Shown: piece after piece, positions 44,959-56,361 of the stretch
Position numbering within the stretch: the stretch's first letter is position 1
Layout of the letters: the number at the start of each line of letters is the position of its first letter
From: Micropruina sp.
Lineage (GTDB): Bacteria; Actinomycetota; Actinomycetes; Propionibacteriales; Propionibacteriaceae
Assembly: GCF_047606365.1 (NCBI RefSeq)
Contig: NZ_JASGEN010000039.1
Coordinates: 344-64,343 of the forward strand
Length of the DNA stretch: 64,000 bases
Direction: 5' to 3'
Made by a program: the position numbers and the translations under genes
Notes under the pieces: model-generated
The model's database searches: none
Told to the model about the DNA's origin: nothing
The model's input: only the letters and a program-made list of their open reading frames with translations

Positions 44959-45223
44959 CGTGAGTCGTCCACTCGCGCACCGCGGCCCGGATGGCCTCAG
45001 AGCGCGTGGCAATACCCTCGGCTTCGGCACGCGCAGTGAGTGCGGCGAGGGTGGCTGCGTCGAGACGTACCGGCACGACCACACCGGGGCCGTCCCCCAC
45101 CGGTGGACGACCGCGACGCGCCTTCGGGAGCTTCGACAGGTCGTAGCCTGCCTCGGCCTCATCGGCCCACGCTTGAATCTGCTCATCGGTCACAGACTCG
45201 CCGTGCAGCAGGTGCTCACTCAT
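44951..45223 (-). CDS. Ribbon-helix-helix (CopG-like) putative antitoxin, 90 aa
   Basis: TDEQIQAWADEAEAGYD..K...RGRP, VVVPVRLD...L..L...A......RSEAIR.AV; ATG 6 nt after TACGAT. Confidence 0.8.
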   Translation of the reverse strand: MSEHLLHGESVTDEQIQAWADEAEAGYDLSKLPKARRGRPPVGDGPGVVVPVRLDAATLAALTARAEAEGIATRSEAIRAAVREWTTHVA

Positions 45224-45230
45224 GGACTTA

Positions 45231-45261
45231 TCGTATACGGAAACATTGTTTCCGTATACGA
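45231..45261. promoter_or_regulatory. Perfect 31-bp palindromic operator over the antitoxin promoter
   Basis: TCGTATACGGAAACA-T-TGTTTCCGTATACGA. Confidence 0.8.
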
Positions 45262-45370
45262 AACTCCTGCGTCGTTGGTCAAGATCGGTGAGAACTCCCC
45301 TACTCAGGGGGAGAGGCGCCATTCTGTACCTGACCGACGCGGTCGACGGAGACTGACGAAGAGGAGTCCG

Positions 45371-46567
45371 ATGAGCGAGTGGCAGCAGGCCTGGCCGAGT
45401 GAGGTCGGCGTCCGGACGGCACGAGAGTTGTTCCGGACGGCGTACGACGCCGAGCCGGACGGCGTCTGGGCCTCGCCGGGGCGGGTGAACCTGATCGGCG
45501 AGCACACCGATTACAACGGCGGGTTGTGCCTGCCGATCGCGCTGCCGCACCGCACCTATGTGGCCGTCTCCGCCCGGTCGGACGGCCGGGTCCGGATGAC
45601 CACCGACATCGGCGATGAGGTGTGGGAGGGCGAGGTCGCCGAGCTCGCTCCCGGCAAGGTGTCGGGCTGGGTGGCCTACTGCGGCGGGCCGGCCTGGGCG
45701 CTGCGGGAGGCGGGCTTCGAGGTGCCCGGATTCGACCTGGCCGTCGCCTCGTGCGTGCCGCTGGGTGCCGGACTGTCGTCGTCCGCGGCGGTGGAGTGCG
45801 CCGTCGGCCTGGCGCTGGCCCAGCTGGCCGGACAACGACTCGACACCGACGATGACTCCCGGGCCCGGCTGGCCACGCTCTGCGTGCTGGCCGAGAACGA
45901 AGTCGCCGGTGCGCCAACCGGCGGCATGGACCAGGCGGCCTCGCTGCGCACCACCGCAGGACATGCGCTGCTGCTCGACTGCCGCGACGGCTCGGTTGAA
46001 CAGGTGCGCTTCGATCTGGCGTCCGCCGGCCTGGAGTTGCTGGTGATCGACACCCGGGCCAGCCACTCACTGGCCGACGGCCAGTACGGCGCCCGCCGTG
46101 CCGCCTGCGAATCGGCCGCCCGCACCCTGGGCGTCGTGACGCTGCGTGAGGTCAGCGATCTGGACGCGGCGCTGGCGCAGCTCGACGACGAGGAAGTGCG
46201 CCGCCGCGTCCGTCATGTGGTGACCGAGATCGCGCGGGTGACCGAGTTCGTGACAGTCGCCGAAGCCGGTGACTGGACCGCCGCCGGCGAGCTGATGAAC
46301 GCCTCGCACGAGTCGCTGCGCGACGACTACGAGGTCAGCTGCCTCGAACTGGACGTGGTGGTGACCGCCGCGCGGGCCGCCGGCGCCCTCGGTGCCCGGA
46401 TGACCGGCGGCGGCTTCGGCGGCAGCGCCATCGCGCTGGTCCGCGGTGAGGACGCCGCGTCCATCGCGCATGCGGTGCGTGAGGCGTCCGGGTCGCGCGG
46501 TCTGCCCGTGCCGGACGTTCATCAGGCCACGCCGTCCGAACCCGGAGGTTGCCTGGTCGAGCCGTGA
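45371..46567 (+). CDS. galK: Galactokinase
   Basis: PGRVNLIGEHTDYN.G, P.GAGLSSSAA, G.MDQ, GARMTGGGFGG. Confidence 0.95.
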   Translation: MSEWQQAWPSEVGVRTARELFRTAYDAEPDGVWASPGRVNLIGEHTDYNGGLCLPIALPHRTYVAVSARSDGRVRMTTDIGDEVWEGEVAELAPGKVSGWVAYCGGPAWALREAGFEVPGFDLAVASCVPLGAGLSSSAAVECAVGLALAQLAGQRLDTDDDSRARLATLCVLAENEVAGAPTGGMDQAASLRTTAGHALLLDCRDGSVEQVRFDLASAGLELLVIDTRASHSLADGQYGARRAACESAARTLGVVTLREVSDLDAALAQLDDEEVRRRVRHVVTEIARVTEFVTVAEAGDWTAAGELMNASHESLRDDYEVSCLELDVVVTAARAAGALGARMTGGGFGGSAIALVRGEDAASIAHAVREASGSRGLPVPDVHQATPSEPGGCLVEP

Positions 46568-52008: not shown

Positions 52009-52121
52009 CGGACCGCTCACAACGTGTAGACGCTTCTGTCCATGGTCCGCACCTAGATTCGTCTAGATAGCGGAGCTTTATAGGCGAATGTAGATGAATA
52101 CAACCTCCCTGGTGGGGCCCC

Positions 52122-52178
52122 GAACAAAAGGGATCCGGATCGGGCTGGTCAGTCCAAGCCCGATCCGGATCCTTGTTT
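52122..52178 (-). terminator. Intrinsic terminator after the PTS gene (possibly bidirectional)
   Basis: 16-bp perfect stem 52131-52146/52157-52172; CTTTTGTT follows on minus, TTGTTT on plus. Confidence 0.8.
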
Positions 52179-52186
52179 CAGCTGCT

Positions 52187-54055
52187 TCAGACCGCCGCGC
52201 TGACCGATACGACGCTGTCACCCCGCTGCAGCGCGGCGTCGGCGTCGTCGAACTCGTTCACGGTGGAGACCTTGCCGAGGTTCGTCACCAGCACCAGGAT
52301 CACGGGATCCTTGCCGGCGCGACGGACGGCGTCGAGGTCGACCCGGGCGATCAGGGTCGACGGGTCGACCCGGTCGCCCGGCGCGCATAAGACCTCGAAA
52401 CCCTCACCCTGAAGCGACACCGTGTCGATGCCGAGATGAACGAGAACCTCGACTCCGTCATCGGTCTCCAGGCCGATCGCATGCTTTGTCGGGAAGACCA
52501 CCGTGACGGTGCCCGACACGGGCGCATACACGTCGCCGTCTGCGGGCTGCAGCGCGTAGCCGTCGCCGACCGTCTTGCTGGCGAAGACCGCGTCGCTGAC
52601 CTCCTCGAGGGGCACAAAGGCGCCCCGCGCGACCGCAACCAGTTCCACACGCTCACCCTTGACTCCCAGCGCCGCCGCCTCCGGGGCGACTGCAGATTCG
52701 TCCGCCGGACGCTCGGCCGGCACCAAGAACATCGTCAGGATGAACGAACTGGAGATGGCGATGGCAATGCCGGCCAACGCGAACGGGAAGTAGGGACCGA
52801 CGTAGGCCGGCAGACTGAAGATCGACGACAGGATGTAGGCGTAGATCCGGACGCCGGTGACGGCGAAGAACGTCGCCGCGAGAGTACTGCCGATCGTCGC
52901 CGCCACGAACGCCCGGCGGTACTTGGAGAGCACGCCGAACAGGGCCGGCTCGGTGATGCCCAGCAGACCTGACACGGCGGCAGATGCGACGACCGTCTTC
53001 TGATCCTTGCTGCGCACCTTGAAGTAGACCGCCGCAGTCGCACCGGCGATGGCCATGTTGGCCATGAACATCATCGGCATGAGCATGTCCCAACCCTGGG
53101 TCGCGAAGTTCTGCAACGCGATGGGGGTCTCGGCATGGTGCAGGCCGGTGAAGATCGCGATCGGGCGAGTGGCACCGAAAATGACGCCCGCGAGGATGGG
53201 CGAGAAGGCGAACAGCCAGGCAACGCCGGCGGCGAGCTGGTTGCCCAAGAAGATGCCGATGGGGCCGATCACCGTGAGCGCCAGCGTGCCGGCGATGAAT
53301 AGCGAGAAGGTGGGCGTGAAGACCGTCCGCAGGACGCGCGGCAGTGCCCGGTCCACCCAGCGATAGATGTGACTGAGCGCGAAGACCGAGAAGATGATCG
53401 GAATCACGGTTCCGGCGTAGTTGAACACCGGGACCGGAATGACGCCGAACAGCATGAACGCCGTGATCTCCTTGGCGGCTGCGGCGGCGGTCATCGTCGG
53501 GTACTGCATGGCGGCGGCGATGGCGACCGCCATGAACATGTTCGTCTTGAAGATCTTCGCCGCGGACGCGGCCACGAAGAACGGCAGGAAGGTGAAGACA
53601 CCGCTCGCGAGCATGTCGATGACGACGTAGGTGTCGTTCTTGTTCGAGATCACGCCCAGTGCCGCGAGCCCGGCCATCAGGCCCTTGATCATGCCCGCGC
53701 CCGCGATGGCAGGGACGATCGGCCCGAAGACACCGGACACCGTGTCCATGGCCAGTGCGACCCAGCCGCGCTTTCCACCGGCTGCTTCGCCGCCACCCGC
53801 TTTGTCGGAGAGCCCGAGCTTGTCAGCCAGCGGTTCGTAGTACTTCTCCACCTCGGTGCCGACCACCACCTGCAGTTCACCGTTCTGGACGTTGGTCCCG
53901 ATCACCTCAGGAACGCCGTCCAGTGCGGCCATGTCCACCTTGGCGCCGTCCTTGAGGTCGAAGCGCAAGCGCGTCATGCAGTGCCACGCGTTGCTGACGT
54001 TGTCCACCCCGCCGACGGCGGCGATGACTTTCTCAGCTACCTCGCTGTAGCGCAT
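52187..54055 (-). CDS. PTS EIIBCA, beta-glucoside/sucrose (Glc family) type
   Basis: EIIB HCMTRLRF, EIIC GLHHA and GITEPALFG, EIIA D.VFASKTVGDG and VLVHLGIDTV.L.G. Confidence 0.92.
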   Translation of the reverse strand: MRYSEVAEKVIAAVGGVDNVSNAWHCMTRLRFDLKDGAKVDMAALDGVPEVIGTNVQNGELQVVVGTEVEKYYEPLADKLGLSDKAGGGEAAGGKRGWVALAMDTVSGVFGPIVPAIAGAGMIKGLMAGLAALGVISNKNDTYVVIDMLASGVFTFLPFFVAASAAKIFKTNMFMAVAIAAAMQYPTMTAAAAAKEITAFMLFGVIPVPVFNYAGTVIPIIFSVFALSHIYRWVDRALPRVLRTVFTPTFSLFIAGTLALTVIGPIGIFLGNQLAAGVAWLFAFSPILAGVIFGATRPIAIFTGLHHAETPIALQNFATQGWDMLMPMMFMANMAIAGATAAVYFKVRSKDQKTVVASAAVSGLLGITEPALFGVLSKYRRAFVAATIGSTLAATFFAVTGVRIYAYILSSIFSLPAYVGPYFPFALAGIAIAISSSFILTMFLVPAERPADESAVAPEAAALGVKGERVELVAVARGAFVPLEEVSDAVFASKTVGDGYALQPADGDVYAPVSGTVTVVFPTKHAIGLETDDGVEVLVHLGIDTVSLQGEGFEVLCAPGDRVDPSTLIARVDLDAVRRAGKDPVILVLVTNLGKVSTVNEFDDADAALQRGDSVVSVSAAV

Positions 54056-54290
54056 CTACAGTCCCCTCTCTCATTTCTCATTCACAGCTCGACCCCAGCC
54101 GAGCGATGGTACCGATCCAATCCCCGGTCCCGACTGGGTAGATTGGAGCATGTAAGCCTGCTCTTTACGAAGCCGCGAAAGCATTGGACTGGCAACTACG
54201 AGCTTTTGGCGCCGTTGACCGAGCCATGCTGGCGGCTCCTCCGGCGCAGCCGGTTGAATAGCGGCGCAGACATGCAGCGAAAGGATCCTG

Positions 54291-55490
54291 ATGACCCCCA
54301 GCACGATCACCCAGGTCGAGGCCATCGTGACGAAGCCAGACAAGCACAACCTGGTGGTCGTGCGAGTTACCACCGACGCCGGCGCCTGGGGTCTCGGCTG
54401 CGCCACCTTCCAGTTCCGCCCATGGGCCGTCCGGAGCGCCGTCGACGACTACCTCCGGCCGCTGCTTTTGGGGCGTGACGCCAATGACATCGAGGACCTG
54501 TGGCACGTGATGCGCATGAGTTCGTACTGGCGCAACGGCCCGGTGCTCAACAACGCCATCGCGGGGGTCGATATGGCCCTGTGGGACATCAAGGGAAAGC
54601 TGGCGGGGATGCCGCTGTATCAGCTTCTCGGCGGACGGTCGCGAACGGCCATCCCCGCCTACGCCCACGCGGTAGCCGATGATCTGGGCGGCCTCTACAC
54701 CCAGATCGACAGGCACCTCGCCGACGGCTACCGCCACGTCCGGGTCCAGTTGGGCTTCTACGGCGGTAATGCGACAGATCTGCAGGCGCCCGAGAACCCG
54801 CTGCCCGGCAGCTACTACGACCCGCGCCAGTACGCGGCCACTACGCTACGGCTGTTCAAGGCGGTCCGCGACCGCTACGGCGACGACATCGAGTTGCTGC
54901 ACGACGTGCACGAGCGATTCAACCCGTCCGACGCGATCCGGTTCGCGAAAGAGTGCGAGCCTTTCGGCCTGTACTTCCTCGAGGACGTTCTGCCGCTTGA
55001 GCAGACCGCCTGGTACGAGAAGCTGCGGGCCCAGACATCGACCCCGATCGCAACGGGCGAACTGTTCAACAATCCCAAGGAGTGGGAGGAACTAGTCGTG
55101 CGTCGCCAGATCGATTTCCTGCGCATCCATGTCTCGCAGATCGGAGGCATCACGCCTGCTCTCAAGGTGGCCCACTTCGCCGATGCCATGGGCATCCGGC
55201 TGGCCTGGCACACGCCGTCCGACATCACTCCGGTCGGTTTGGCGGTCAATACCCACCTGAACGTTCACCTGCACAATGCGAGCGTGCAGGAGAACCTCGA
55301 CGTGCAGCCGAATACAGCGGCGATGTTCGCGGGCTACCCGGTGCAATCCCGCGGGTTCCTGCGGCCTTCCGACGAGCCCGGCATCGGTGTCTCATTCGAC
55401 GTGGATGCGGCCGCCGAGTTCCCAGGGGTGTTCAAGGAGCACCCCTGGACCACCAGTCGCACCGCCGACGGCACGCTCGTCACCCCGTGA
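54291..55490 (+). CDS. Enolase-superfamily acid-sugar dehydratase (D-mannonate dehydratase/RspA subgroup)
   Basis: GLGCATF, SSYWRNGPVLNNAI.GVDMALWDIKGK, LLHDVHER, FLED, ATGE, AWH.P.D. Confidence 0.88.
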   Translation: MTPSTITQVEAIVTKPDKHNLVVVRVTTDAGAWGLGCATFQFRPWAVRSAVDDYLRPLLLGRDANDIEDLWHVMRMSSYWRNGPVLNNAIAGVDMALWDIKGKLAGMPLYQLLGGRSRTAIPAYAHAVADDLGGLYTQIDRHLADGYRHVRVQLGFYGGNATDLQAPENPLPGSYYDPRQYAATTLRLFKAVRDRYGDDIELLHDVHERFNPSDAIRFAKECEPFGLYFLEDVLPLEQTAWYEKLRAQTSTPIATGELFNNPKEWEELVVRRQIDFLRIHVSQIGGITPALKVAHFADAMGIRLAWHTPSDITPVGLAVNTHLNVHLHNASVQENLDVQPNTAAMFAGYPVQSRGFLRPSDEPGIGVSFDVDAAAEFPGVFKEHPWTTSRTADGTLVTP

Positions 55491-55508
55491 CGAGGCGCGG
55501 CTCTCGAT

Positions 55509-56216
55509 CTAGAGCCGCGCCTGGTGCACCTCGCGGTCGAACCGGCTGATGTAGGACACCTCATAGTTCAGCGCGATCATCTCGCTGTGTGCGAAGACGC
55601 GACCGTCGGTCAGCACCCCGCGGCTATCGATGGCCATCGCCGGGGCTCCCCGGCGACACTCCAGGATGCTCGCGTCCTGTCGAGTCACGGTCACCGGCCG
55701 ATAGCTCGTCATGTAGTGCGAGATGCGGTAGCCGGCCCCCTCCACGAACCCCTGAACCGACTTCTCCAGAACGGCGTCCGACAAGGTCGGGAACATGGCT
55801 GCGGGCATCACCGTGCGCTCAATCTGGGAGCTCACCCCGTCAATGATTCGCAGTCGGTCGAACTGCCAGATCTCACCACCGGAGGGCAGCTGGAAGAGGA
55901 GAGCCTCATCGGCGCTCGGGGACGTGCGGTTCAGGTGCAGCACGCGCGAGTCGATCTGTTCGTACGGCGTTCGGGTCATCGTGTTGTAGATCAGAGGATT
56001 CTTACGCAGGCCCTCGCGCACGTAGGTGCCCGAACCCTGCGTGGAGCTGAGCGCTCCGATCAGCGTGAGGTTCTCGATCACCGCCTGAATGGTGAACCTC
56101 GAGACGCCGTACTCACGCGCGAACTCCCGCTGGGTCGGCAGCTTTCCCGACGGCCATTGCTGGCGGAAGATGCGACTCAAGACGTCGGCCACGATGAAGT
56201 CGACTTTCTTACCCAT
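55509..56216 (-). CDS. GntR family regulator (HutC/UTRA type)
   Basis: LPTQRE.A..YGVSRFTI, QGSGTYV, C-terminal UTRA-like region. Confidence 0.88.
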   Translation of the reverse strand: MGKKVDFIVADVLSRIFRQQWPSGKLPTQREFAREYGVSRFTIQAVIENLTLIGALSSTQGSGTYVREGLRKNPLIYNTMTRTPYEQIDSRVLHLNRTSPSADEALLFQLPSGGEIWQFDRLRIIDGVSSQIERTVMPAAMFPTLSDAVLEKSVQGFVEGAGYRISHYMTSYRPVTVTRQDASILECRRGAPAMAIDSRGVLTDGRVFAHSEMIALNYEVSYISRFDREVHQARL

Positions 56217-56227
56217 GAGCCACACCC

Positions 56228-56272
56228 AGATTCGTCTAGAAGAGCCGGTCGTCCCGGACGAATCTAGACGAT
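56228..56272. promoter_or_regulatory. Paired TCTAGA-core sites upstream of gntR (candidate operators)
   Basis: AGATTCGTCTAGA at 56228-56240 and inverted GACGAATCTAGACGA at 56257-56271. Confidence 0.55.
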
Positions 56273-56305
56273 GCGCCCGTCGTCGCGATTGCGCCGCAAA
56301 TATGG

Positions 56306-56347
56306 ATCGGGACCGGGCACCGACTACCGTGCCCGATCCCGATCCTT
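56306..56347 (-). terminator. Hairpin terminator after the E2 gene
   Basis: GGATCGGGACCGGGCAC / GTGCCCGATCCCGATCC stem, followed by ATATTT on minus. Confidence 0.55.
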
Positions 56348-56361
56348 ATTTGCCGCAGGGT

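Follow-up and report, generated by a model that had tools for sequence, protein, structure and literature searches.

A PTS permease, a ManD-like enzyme and a GntR regulator inherited together in three phyla: a likely catabolic cassette for an acidic carbohydrate

Several described systems come close to the locus discussed here. In the bgl and asc operons a permease of the phosphotransferase system (PTS), BglF or BglP, is combined with a GH1 phospho-beta-glucosidase and an antiterminator of the BglG/LicT type; in the MurP/MurQ/MurR system an enzyme II (EII) of the glucose family with EIIBC composition takes up N-acetylmuramic acid, a carboxylate-bearing sugar, and one cytoplasmic enzyme removes its 3-O substituent by elimination; in Escherichia coli, MngA, MngB and MngR serve the PTS-dependent use of a glycosyl-glycerate under a HutC-type regulator. 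Canonical ManD enzymes of the enolase superfamily, represented by the structures from Novosphingobium (2QJJ), Chromohalobacter (3OW1) and Salmonella (3TW9), form 2-keto-3-deoxygluconate (KDG). The 64,000-nucleotide stretch of Micropruina sp. DNA analysed here (contig NZ_JASGEN010000039.1, positions 344 to 64,343, in the following the window) contains a module of three open reading frames (ORFs): a PTS EIIBCA gene on the minus strand (52187-54055, 622 aa, with PTS_EIIB, EIIC and EIIA_1 domains), a plus-strand gene for an enolase-superfamily enzyme of the ManD subgroup (54291-55490, 399 aa, MR_MLE_N/C domains), and a minus-strand gene for a GntR regulator of the HutC subfamily (55509-56216, winged helix-turn-helix and UTRA domains), whose translation probably begins at the ATG at 56216, with a further open GTG at 56225. 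Most likely the module is a self-sufficient catabolic cassette that moves horizontally and degrades an acidic carbohydrate along a route undescribed so far. It is related to known kinds, namely the PTS sugar-acid routes and the ManD-type dehydratases, and the literature searched does not explain it.

The EIIBCA architecture and the phosphorylation motifs are common to the cassette and to the bgl-type operons. Unlike these operons, the cassette has no adjacent GH1 or GH4 gene and is equipped with a HutC-type GntR as regulator; no PRD antiterminator of the BglG/LicT type was found among the annotated neighbours of the window module. Within or beside the module there is likewise no other glycosidase, sugar kinase, dehydrogenase or aldolase. 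The original prediction, made from the letters of the window, had described three genes of these very families and had remarked on the missing GH1/GH4, kinase, dehydrogenase and aldolase; all three ORFs were found where it placed them, and the absence is confirmed for the module and the adjacent genes. The resemblance to MurP/MurQ/MurR lies in the uptake of a carboxylate-bearing sugar by a glucose-family EII and in the use of one eliminating enzyme; however, MurQ is a SIS-domain etherase and MurR an RpiR regulator, both absent from the window module, and the window EII reaches only 107.6 bits on the MurP model, against a cut-off of 516. With canonical ManD the cassette enzyme has in common the fold, the Pfam domains, the Mg2+ ligands, the Arg-Tyr dyad and the His acid; unlike canonical ManD, it belongs to a separate long-branch clade, has a remodelled pocket and stays below the model cut-offs, and it is always accompanied by a PTS permease, whereas its ManD relatives are found with MFS or TRAP transporters and dehydrogenases. 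A further parallel is the D-glucosaminate PTS (DgaABCD), in which acid-sugar uptake is joined to a glucosaminate-6-phosphate ammonia-lyase that gives a 2-keto-3-deoxy-6-phospho acid for an Eda-type aldolase (PMC9529869). PTS uptake of an acid sugar is there linked to an elimination step, as in the cassette, while the parts differ: DgaABCD uses a mannose-family EII and a pyridoxal phosphate (PLP) enzyme and needs no kinase, the cassette a glucose-family EII and an enolase-superfamily enzyme.

The behaviour of the three genes outside the window is the main evidence for a single system. Relatives of the enzyme were collected at 113 loci from species genomes, assemblies and metagenomes, and each locus was searched for the window EII and GntR. 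Wherever the enolase is at least 54% identical to that of the window, the EII gene lies divergently upstream at a distance of 230-390 bp (25/25 fetched loci, from Micropruina, Collinsella, Bacillus subtilis DE0224, Lederbergia, Oceanobacillus, Listeria grayi, Enterococcus, and gut, soil and fermentation metagenomes), and GntR follows the enolase immediately downstream wherever the contig extends far enough. Neither EII nor GntR was found beside enolases of 53% identity or less (0/68 loci). In 4/4 plasmid or replicon records that reach the 54% threshold the EII is again divergent from the enolase. The complete set of three genes lies on Cronobacter plasmids of the pCDU1/pESA3 type, Rahnella megaplasmids, an Enterococcus gallinarum megaplasmid and a 1.8-Mb Vibrio replicon, with different neighbours each time; the three genes are together also in Listeria grayi, Enterococcus asini and Collinsella vaginalis. 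The cassette therefore spans Actinomycetota, Bacillota and Gammaproteobacteria. Maximum-likelihood analysis of 90 sequences groups the PTS-linked enzymes into a single clade on a long branch (SH-aLRT 99, length 0.63). The identity of the EII to the window protein rises and falls with that of the enzyme (r = 0.99 with all loci included, 0.91 when Micropruina is left out), and that of GntR follows it likewise. A sample of 401 Bacillota genomes yielded one clade member, which is too sparse for statistics.

The permease confirms this picture from another side. Against TIGR01995 (beta-glucoside IIABC) the window EII scores 575.9 bits over its full length, narrowly missing the cut-off of 614.7; the Pfam domain order is B-C-A, as in the TIGR01995 type, and the phosphorylation sites and motifs are intact (Cys26 in HCMTRLR, GITE at 366-369, His525 and His540). 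Its identity to other cassette EIIs is 53-67% in Bacillota, Coriobacteriia and Enterobacterales and 42% in Vibrio, while the most similar paralogue encoded by the genome of the window reaches only 34.5% and adjoins a GH1 gene. The same genome encodes ptsH-ptsI and six other EIIC genes, two of them with their own adjacent GH1, so that the cassette permease can be energised. These comparisons support the view that the window EII is not an ordinary bgl transporter, but a member of a cassette-specific lineage in the glucose/beta-glucoside superfamily. Because of the synteny, the single enzyme clade, the co-varying divergence and the separation of the EII lineage from its own paralogue, the three genes are to be regarded as one co-inherited cassette: EIIBC(A), ManD-like enzyme and GntR share inheritance, divergence and placement as a single unit, and the pairing of PTS and enzyme goes far beyond chance adjacency. 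The genome-neighbourhood analysis that the original prediction had proposed as a check thus revealed a linkage that is strict across phyla, in the fetched loci and in the plasmid and replicon records alike. The idea of three genes forming one unit for an unusual substrate stands as regards the unit, on synteny, co-divergence, monophyly and the pair of promoter boxes described below, and as regards an EII that is not of the ordinary bgl kind; the substrate is only narrowed.

The enzyme of the window contains the MR_MLE capping and barrel domains, both above their cut-offs (PF02746, 83.8 bits; PF13378, 151.4 bits), and shows the marks of the ManD subgroup, namely three Mg2+ ligands, a His acid two residues past the Asp and an Arg-Tyr dyad. 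Among family models it matches the ManD equivalog NF043051 best, yet it stays below the cut-off there (368 vs 550 bits), as it does for PRK15072, the "D-galactonate dehydratase family" (356.2 vs 430 bits). The ManD catalytic set (R151, Y157, D205, H207, E231, E257, R278, H307, E334, W386) is invariant in 16 clade members, and the Mg2+ ligands D205, E231 and E257 are spaced by 26/26 residues, matching D210/E236/E262. We take D205/H207/E231/E257/R151/Y157 to be the equivalents of D210/H212/E236/E262/R147/Y159, a matching that follows Rakus et al. 2007 and not a structural superposition. Since the catalytic set is invariant, abstraction of the alpha-proton from a Mg2+-bound carboxylate and elimination of the beta-substituent are expected, and the enzyme should have retained this chemistry. 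The closest structure, 4HNL from Enterococcus gallinarum, aligns over the full length without gaps (E = 2.5e-190); the best PDB matches, at 520-636 bits, are eight entries of the same clade (4HNL, 3S47/3GY1, 3TJI, 4GGH, 3R25/3SBF and 3DFH), followed by a group with at most 391 bits (3T6C, 4IHC, 3TW9) and by the canonical ManDs with about 250-290 bits. The eight entries were deposited under generic names, either "mandelate racemase/muconate lactonizing enzyme" or "enolase", and full-text literature searches found no paper that assigns a function to the PTS-linked clade or to its PDB proteins. Structural-genomics members of the clade reportedly lack activity in screens against free acid sugars.

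Set against 68 sequences from neighbouring clades, the PTS-linked group has gained K/R15, R/K18 and H19 in the capping-domain 20s loop, together with Q41, Y196, N324, H326, R/K382 and H384, and has lost bulky residues beside the catalytic Glu (H317L, F330A and W335N). Across enolase-superfamily enzymes it is the 20s loop that covers the distal portion of the substrate on closing. We infer that the pocket of the PTS-linked clade is larger and more basic than in its neighbours. The sister clades, 44-48% identical, have MFS transporters, SDR enzymes and L-idonate 5-dehydrogenase as neighbours, a setting of free-aldonate metabolism, and they reportedly act as dehydratases on free gluconate or mannonate. 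The ManD subgroup is a classic example of over-annotation: databases call members of the PTS-linked clade "mannonate dehydratase", "RspA" or "D-galactonate dehydratase", although the clade fails the curated cut-offs and is never seen in a free-aldonate context. P309, the equivalent of the Pro mutated in 3SBF, had been considered as a marker of the clade and was dropped, being present in all 89 aligned sequences.

What the enzyme produces is suggested by the genes that have joined the cassette. When all ORFs of 22 clade loci were clustered, the sole recurrent additions to the three core genes were an Eda-type aldolase (4 loci) and a PfkB protein similar to KDG kinase (3 loci), and no recurrent glycoside hydrolase (GH) gene was found beside the cassette. 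In Listeria grayi and in one metagenome locus the order is PTS-Eda-PfkB, and in B. subtilis DE0224 Eda and PfkB are placed after GntR, so that the recruited order in Bacillota is Eda, of the PRK06552 type, and then PfkB, in two placements. In Vibrio the PTS gene is followed by KdgK and Eda at distances of 36 bp and 12 bp, in one operon, and both belong to proteobacterial subfamilies (377 bits for KdgK on NF052444, cut-off 400; 307.6 bits for Eda on PRK05718, cut-off 241); because the gene order is reversed and the subfamilies differ, this recruitment is independent of that in Bacillota. The repeated recruitment of KdgK and Eda indicates a 2-keto-3-deoxy-hexonate as the product, and the recurrence of the kinase beside the cassette suggests that this product is unphosphorylated KDG. 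Accommodation of the two genes is compatible with the product of canonical ManD, and KDG and 2-keto-3-deoxy-6-phosphogluconate (KDPG) are a likely end point of the pathway. KdgK-like and Eda genes are adjacent to each other somewhere in 8/8 cassette genomes examined; in the genome of the window, a ManD-like gene (39% identical) adjoins PfkB and Eda on contig C72 (9734-12689), a conventional cluster from mannonate or gluconate through KDG to KDPG, which could process the KDG made by the cassette. A co-regulated route that combines PTS uptake with acid-sugar elimination and feeds KDG/KDPG is quite probable.

Within this frame, the reading that we prefer, with a probability of about 0.38, is that an imported phosphorylated glycosyl-aldonate is cleaved by the elimination reaction of the enzyme into hexose-6-phosphate and KDG. 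The EII would import a glycoside with an aldonate aglycone, of the glycosyl-gluconate or glycosyl-mannonate type, and phosphorylate O6 of the glycosyl ring. The ManD-like enzyme would hold the carboxylate by Mg2+ and abstract the C2 proton, whereupon the C3 substituent would be eliminated, a 3-O-linked sugar being the leaving group; with a 2-O-linked sugar, the 3-OH would be lost and the resulting enol ether would hydrolyse. The glycosidic link would thus be broken without a glycosidase, yielding hexose-6-phosphate and unphosphorylated KDG, the latter to be used through KdgK and Eda, which here would be those of contig C72 and in some hosts those of the cassette operon itself. GntR would repress both promoters until a phosphorylated intermediate occupies its UTRA domain. 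The glycosyl-aldonate route is favoured because descent from beta-glucoside carriers fits a glycoside and because KdgK and Eda were recruited, a glycosidase never; moreover, if KDG leaves unphosphorylated, the PTS phosphate needs a place, which is most simply a separate sugar moiety. Of the two mechanisms considered in the original prediction, direct dehydration of a phosphorylated aldonate to a KDPG-type product and cleavage of a glycosyl-aldonate by beta-elimination, the recurrent KDG kinase argues mildly for the second. Several observations weigh against it. No literature was found on 3-O- or 2-O-glycosyl aldonates, which are not established as abundant natural compounds, and no enzyme of the enolase superfamily is known to us in which a glycosyl group is the leaving group. 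Since kdgK and eda frequently move together, the kinase could be a passenger of Eda that the pathway does not need, and in one Lederbergia locus (L006) Eda stands beside the cassette with no kinase there. Finally, GH1 genes are present in 8/8 cassette genomes examined, with 2-20 per genome; a search for any cassette genome devoid of GH1, or of KdgK and Eda, showed that all have both, which does not separate the models.

These GH1 enzymes could act in trans, and on them is built an alternative of conventional chemistry: the EII would import and phosphorylate a glycosyl-aldonate (for example cellobionate, gentiobionate or another aldobionic acid), a promiscuous phospho-beta-glucosidase from another part of the genome would release glucose-6-phosphate and the free aldonate, and the cassette enzyme would dehydrate the aldonate to KDG for KdgK and Eda. 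The free-aldonate contexts of the sister clades and the recruitment of KdgK and Eda, compatible as it is with free KDG, speak for such a pathway, but in none of more than 25 loci from three phyla has a GH gene been recruited, whereas KdgK and Eda have been at least twice, and the pocket is strongly remodelled with respect to the free-aldonate clades; the reported inactivity of clade members on free acid sugars points the same way. We hold an unlinked glycosidase to be unlikely. About as unlikely is a different carboxylate chemistry, in which the substrate is a glycoside of a short hydroxy acid, such as glycosyl-glycerate, -malate or -tartrate, or the enzyme an epimerase or racemase instead of a dehydratase or lyase, so that KDG would not be the product. 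The majority of cassettes lack KdgK and Eda, the enolase superfamily is mechanistically diverse, and the mannosylglycerate system of E. coli offers a precedent, to whose regulator group the weak best NCBIfam match of the cassette GntR leads; conversely, the catalytic and binding set of the hexonate type is fully shared with gluconate and mannonate dehydratases, and the recruitment of KdgK and Eda is recurrent and independent.

More doubtful still is the import of a monomeric acid sugar, perhaps as a pyranose-like 1,5-lactone, which the EII would phosphorylate on O6 and the enzyme would convert to KDPG or a KDPG-type product for cleavage by Eda. One enzyme would suffice for such a cassette, the Lederbergia locus does add Eda alone, the basic residues gained in the 20s loop and in the C-terminal segment could hold a phosphate, and the reaction would be the counterpart, in the enolase superfamily, of Edd or of the glucosaminate-6-phosphate ammonia-lyase route; the D-glucosaminate PTS with DGL, in which a PTS-phosphorylated aldonate becomes KDPG in one step (PMC9529869), provides a precedent. 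A KDG kinase would however be superfluous, and yet it is found in the Vibrio operon and beside three Bacillota cassettes; glucose-family EIIs act on pyranosides, and the window EII is closest to beta-glucoside carriers; furthermore, a 6-phosphogluconate dehydratase would duplicate Edd in Enterobacterales. By far the least probable is the case that the original prediction had itself named as its refutation, in which EII and enzyme are independent neighbours, the former serving ordinary beta-glucosides through a distant GH1 and the latter acting on free mannonate or gluconate from another uptake route. The genome does carry GH1 genes and the canonical ManD-KdgK-Eda cluster elsewhere, but strict synteny in 25/25 loci and 4/4 plasmid or replicon records from three phyla, with unrelated flanks, the single PTS-linked clade, the co-varying divergence and a conserved pair of promoter boxes common to both genes make it very unlikely.

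The strict PTS linkage narrows the substrate to phosphorylated acid sugars or acidic glycosides. If glycosyl-aldonate cleavage is the true function, the elimination-driven breakage of a glycosidic link would be a new type of reaction for the enolase superfamily and a new, glycosidase-free way for PTS pathways, and the eight solved structures at hand for the clade would receive a function. That the PTS-linked ManD clade as a whole consists of phospho-glycosyl-aldonate lyases replacing a phospho-glycosidase, with a dedicated EII and a HutC repressor, in an undescribed and widely transferred route for di- and oligosaccharides ending in an aldonic acid, is a tentative reading with a realistic chance, though on balance somewhat unlikely. 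The hosts come from the gut (Enterococcus, Collinsella), food and plants (Cronobacter, Rahnella), the sea (Vibrio) and wastewater (Micropruina), a range that suggests a widespread and unrecognised carbon source, possibly oxidised oligosaccharides.

Some cassette loci have further genes of sugar metabolism nearby. Just past the PTS-KdgK-Eda operon of Vibrio sp. THAF191c (locus L117, 1500-2147) there is a HAD phosphatase similar to the 6-phosphogluconate phosphatase YieH (182.7 bits vs a cut-off of 211); if it were a pathway member, this would point to a phosphorylated aldonate as an intermediate that is then dephosphorylated. On the Rahnella aceris plasmid pRAHAQ01 (locus L115, 10743-13220) a membrane-bound, pyrroloquinoline quinone (PQQ)-dependent dehydrogenase of the glucose/quinate type is located 1.8 kb past gntR and 2.5 kb from the enolase gene. 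PQQ-dependent dehydrogenases of this type make aldonic acids extracellularly; their link to the Rahnella cassette may be coincidental. In Listeria grayi (locus L014, 12086-18564) the cassette directly adjoins another PTS operon, which is distinct from it, includes a GH38 alpha-mannosidase and a PRD regulator, and resembles in its arrangement the mannosylglycerate genes mngA/mngB of E. coli.

The GntR protein has a winged helix-turn-helix and a UTRA domain (PF00392, 37.6 bits; PF07702, 85.3 bits) and the characters of the HutC subfamily; it reaches no equivalog model, its weak best NCBIfam match being a model of the mannosylglycerate (MngR) regulator group, and it has no paralogue in its own genome at E < 1e-8. 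Two conserved operator-like boxes lie in the divergent control region (54056-54290) that separates the PTS gene from the enolase gene: box 1, ATTGGACTG, at 54183-54191 on the strand of the enolase gene, and the inverted box 2, CGATCCAAT, at 54113-54121, which reads ATTGGATCG on the minus strand. The nonamer ATTGGACTG occurs exactly in 13/19 PTS-enolase intergenic regions; in these 19 regions box 1 sits 108-163 bp upstream of the enolase start, and in 10 of them, from Actinomycetota, Bacillota and Gammaproteobacteria, the inverted box 2 is found a further 68-70 bp upstream. Both boxes of the window fall in blocks conserved among four Micropruina sequences, and we infer that the HutC regulator of the cassette binds them. 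Upstream of gntR an inverted repeat (56228-56265) is formed by AGATTCGTC at 56228-56236 and GACGAATCT at 56257-56265, each arm overlapping a TCTAGA site; it is similar to the ATTGGTCTG variant of the box and represents a candidate auto-regulatory operator. Consensus scans for sigma-70 promoters and terminators gave nothing useful in this high-GC DNA.

Within Micropruina the cassette is found in only 4/22 species genomes of the genus, and it is found in no other genus of the family or order. In the maximum-likelihood tree the Micropruina enzymes are placed next to Collinsella within a clade dominated by Bacillota. The patchy distribution and the position in the tree make horizontal acquisition likely, and the four cassette-bearing species have probably gained it in this way. 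The GC content of the module is 0.647, against 0.686 for the genome, which corresponds to the 6th percentile of 4-kb windows, and the GC skew is negative over 53.5-56.5 kb, whereas GC3 (0.86-0.88) is near native. The visual impression in the original prediction, that the DNA is less GC-skewed than its flanks, is borne out weakly; the codon composition of the cassette is largely ameliorated, and composition is weak evidence of transfer. As to mobile carriers, the cassette is a constant element of the RepFIB plasmids of the pESA3/pCTU1 type in Cronobacter (C. dublinensis pCDU1, locus L114, and 31 others), and on pCDU1 it lies a few kb from the hcp gene of a type VI secretion system.

In the window, gntR and the enolase gene are convergent with an 18-bp gap between them. 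The module is flanked on the left by genes for a MarR regulator, a Zn-ribbon protein, a rhodanese and an alanine racemase (alr), and on the right by the E2/E1beta/E1alpha operon of a 2-oxoacid dehydrogenase; these genes are unrelated to it. A GC-rich hairpin with 21-nt arms, 90% complementary, followed by a T-rich run on the minus strand (52126-52177), probably terminates the PTS gene. Together with its counterpart after the E2 gene (56293-56356), this GGATCGGG...CCCGATCC hairpin is a member of a REP-like terminator family dispersed through the genome (contigs C2, C6, C61, C67, C145 and others). A direct repeat of about 140 bp brackets the module (left copy 52040-52180, right copy 56213-56353; 78% identity, spacing 4173 bp), each copy comprising the motif CCATG..CACCyAGATTCGTCTAGA, a GC-rich hairpin and then the stop codon of a minus-strand gene; all four TCTAGA sites of the window are in or beside the module. 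The repeat may mark a recombination boundary or a duplicated operator.

The closest public relatives of the window are Micropruina metagenome-assembled genomes, among which locus L001 is 98% identical at the protein level. The left copy of the repeat, which lies upstream of the MarR gene, is absent or altered in L001 and in sludge contigs of a 97.5% variant, and the left flank of these sludge contigs departs from the window exactly at 52131. The sugar gene closest to the module, at about 5.6 kb, encodes a galactokinase; its ORF (44960-46567) is listed with 535 aa, the Pfam-matched core beginning only at about residue 156, so that the N-terminus is about 150 residues longer and the true start may be internal. 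The entire cassette of the 97.5% variant is contained in metatranscriptome runs, on contigs with a flat k-mer depth of 295.

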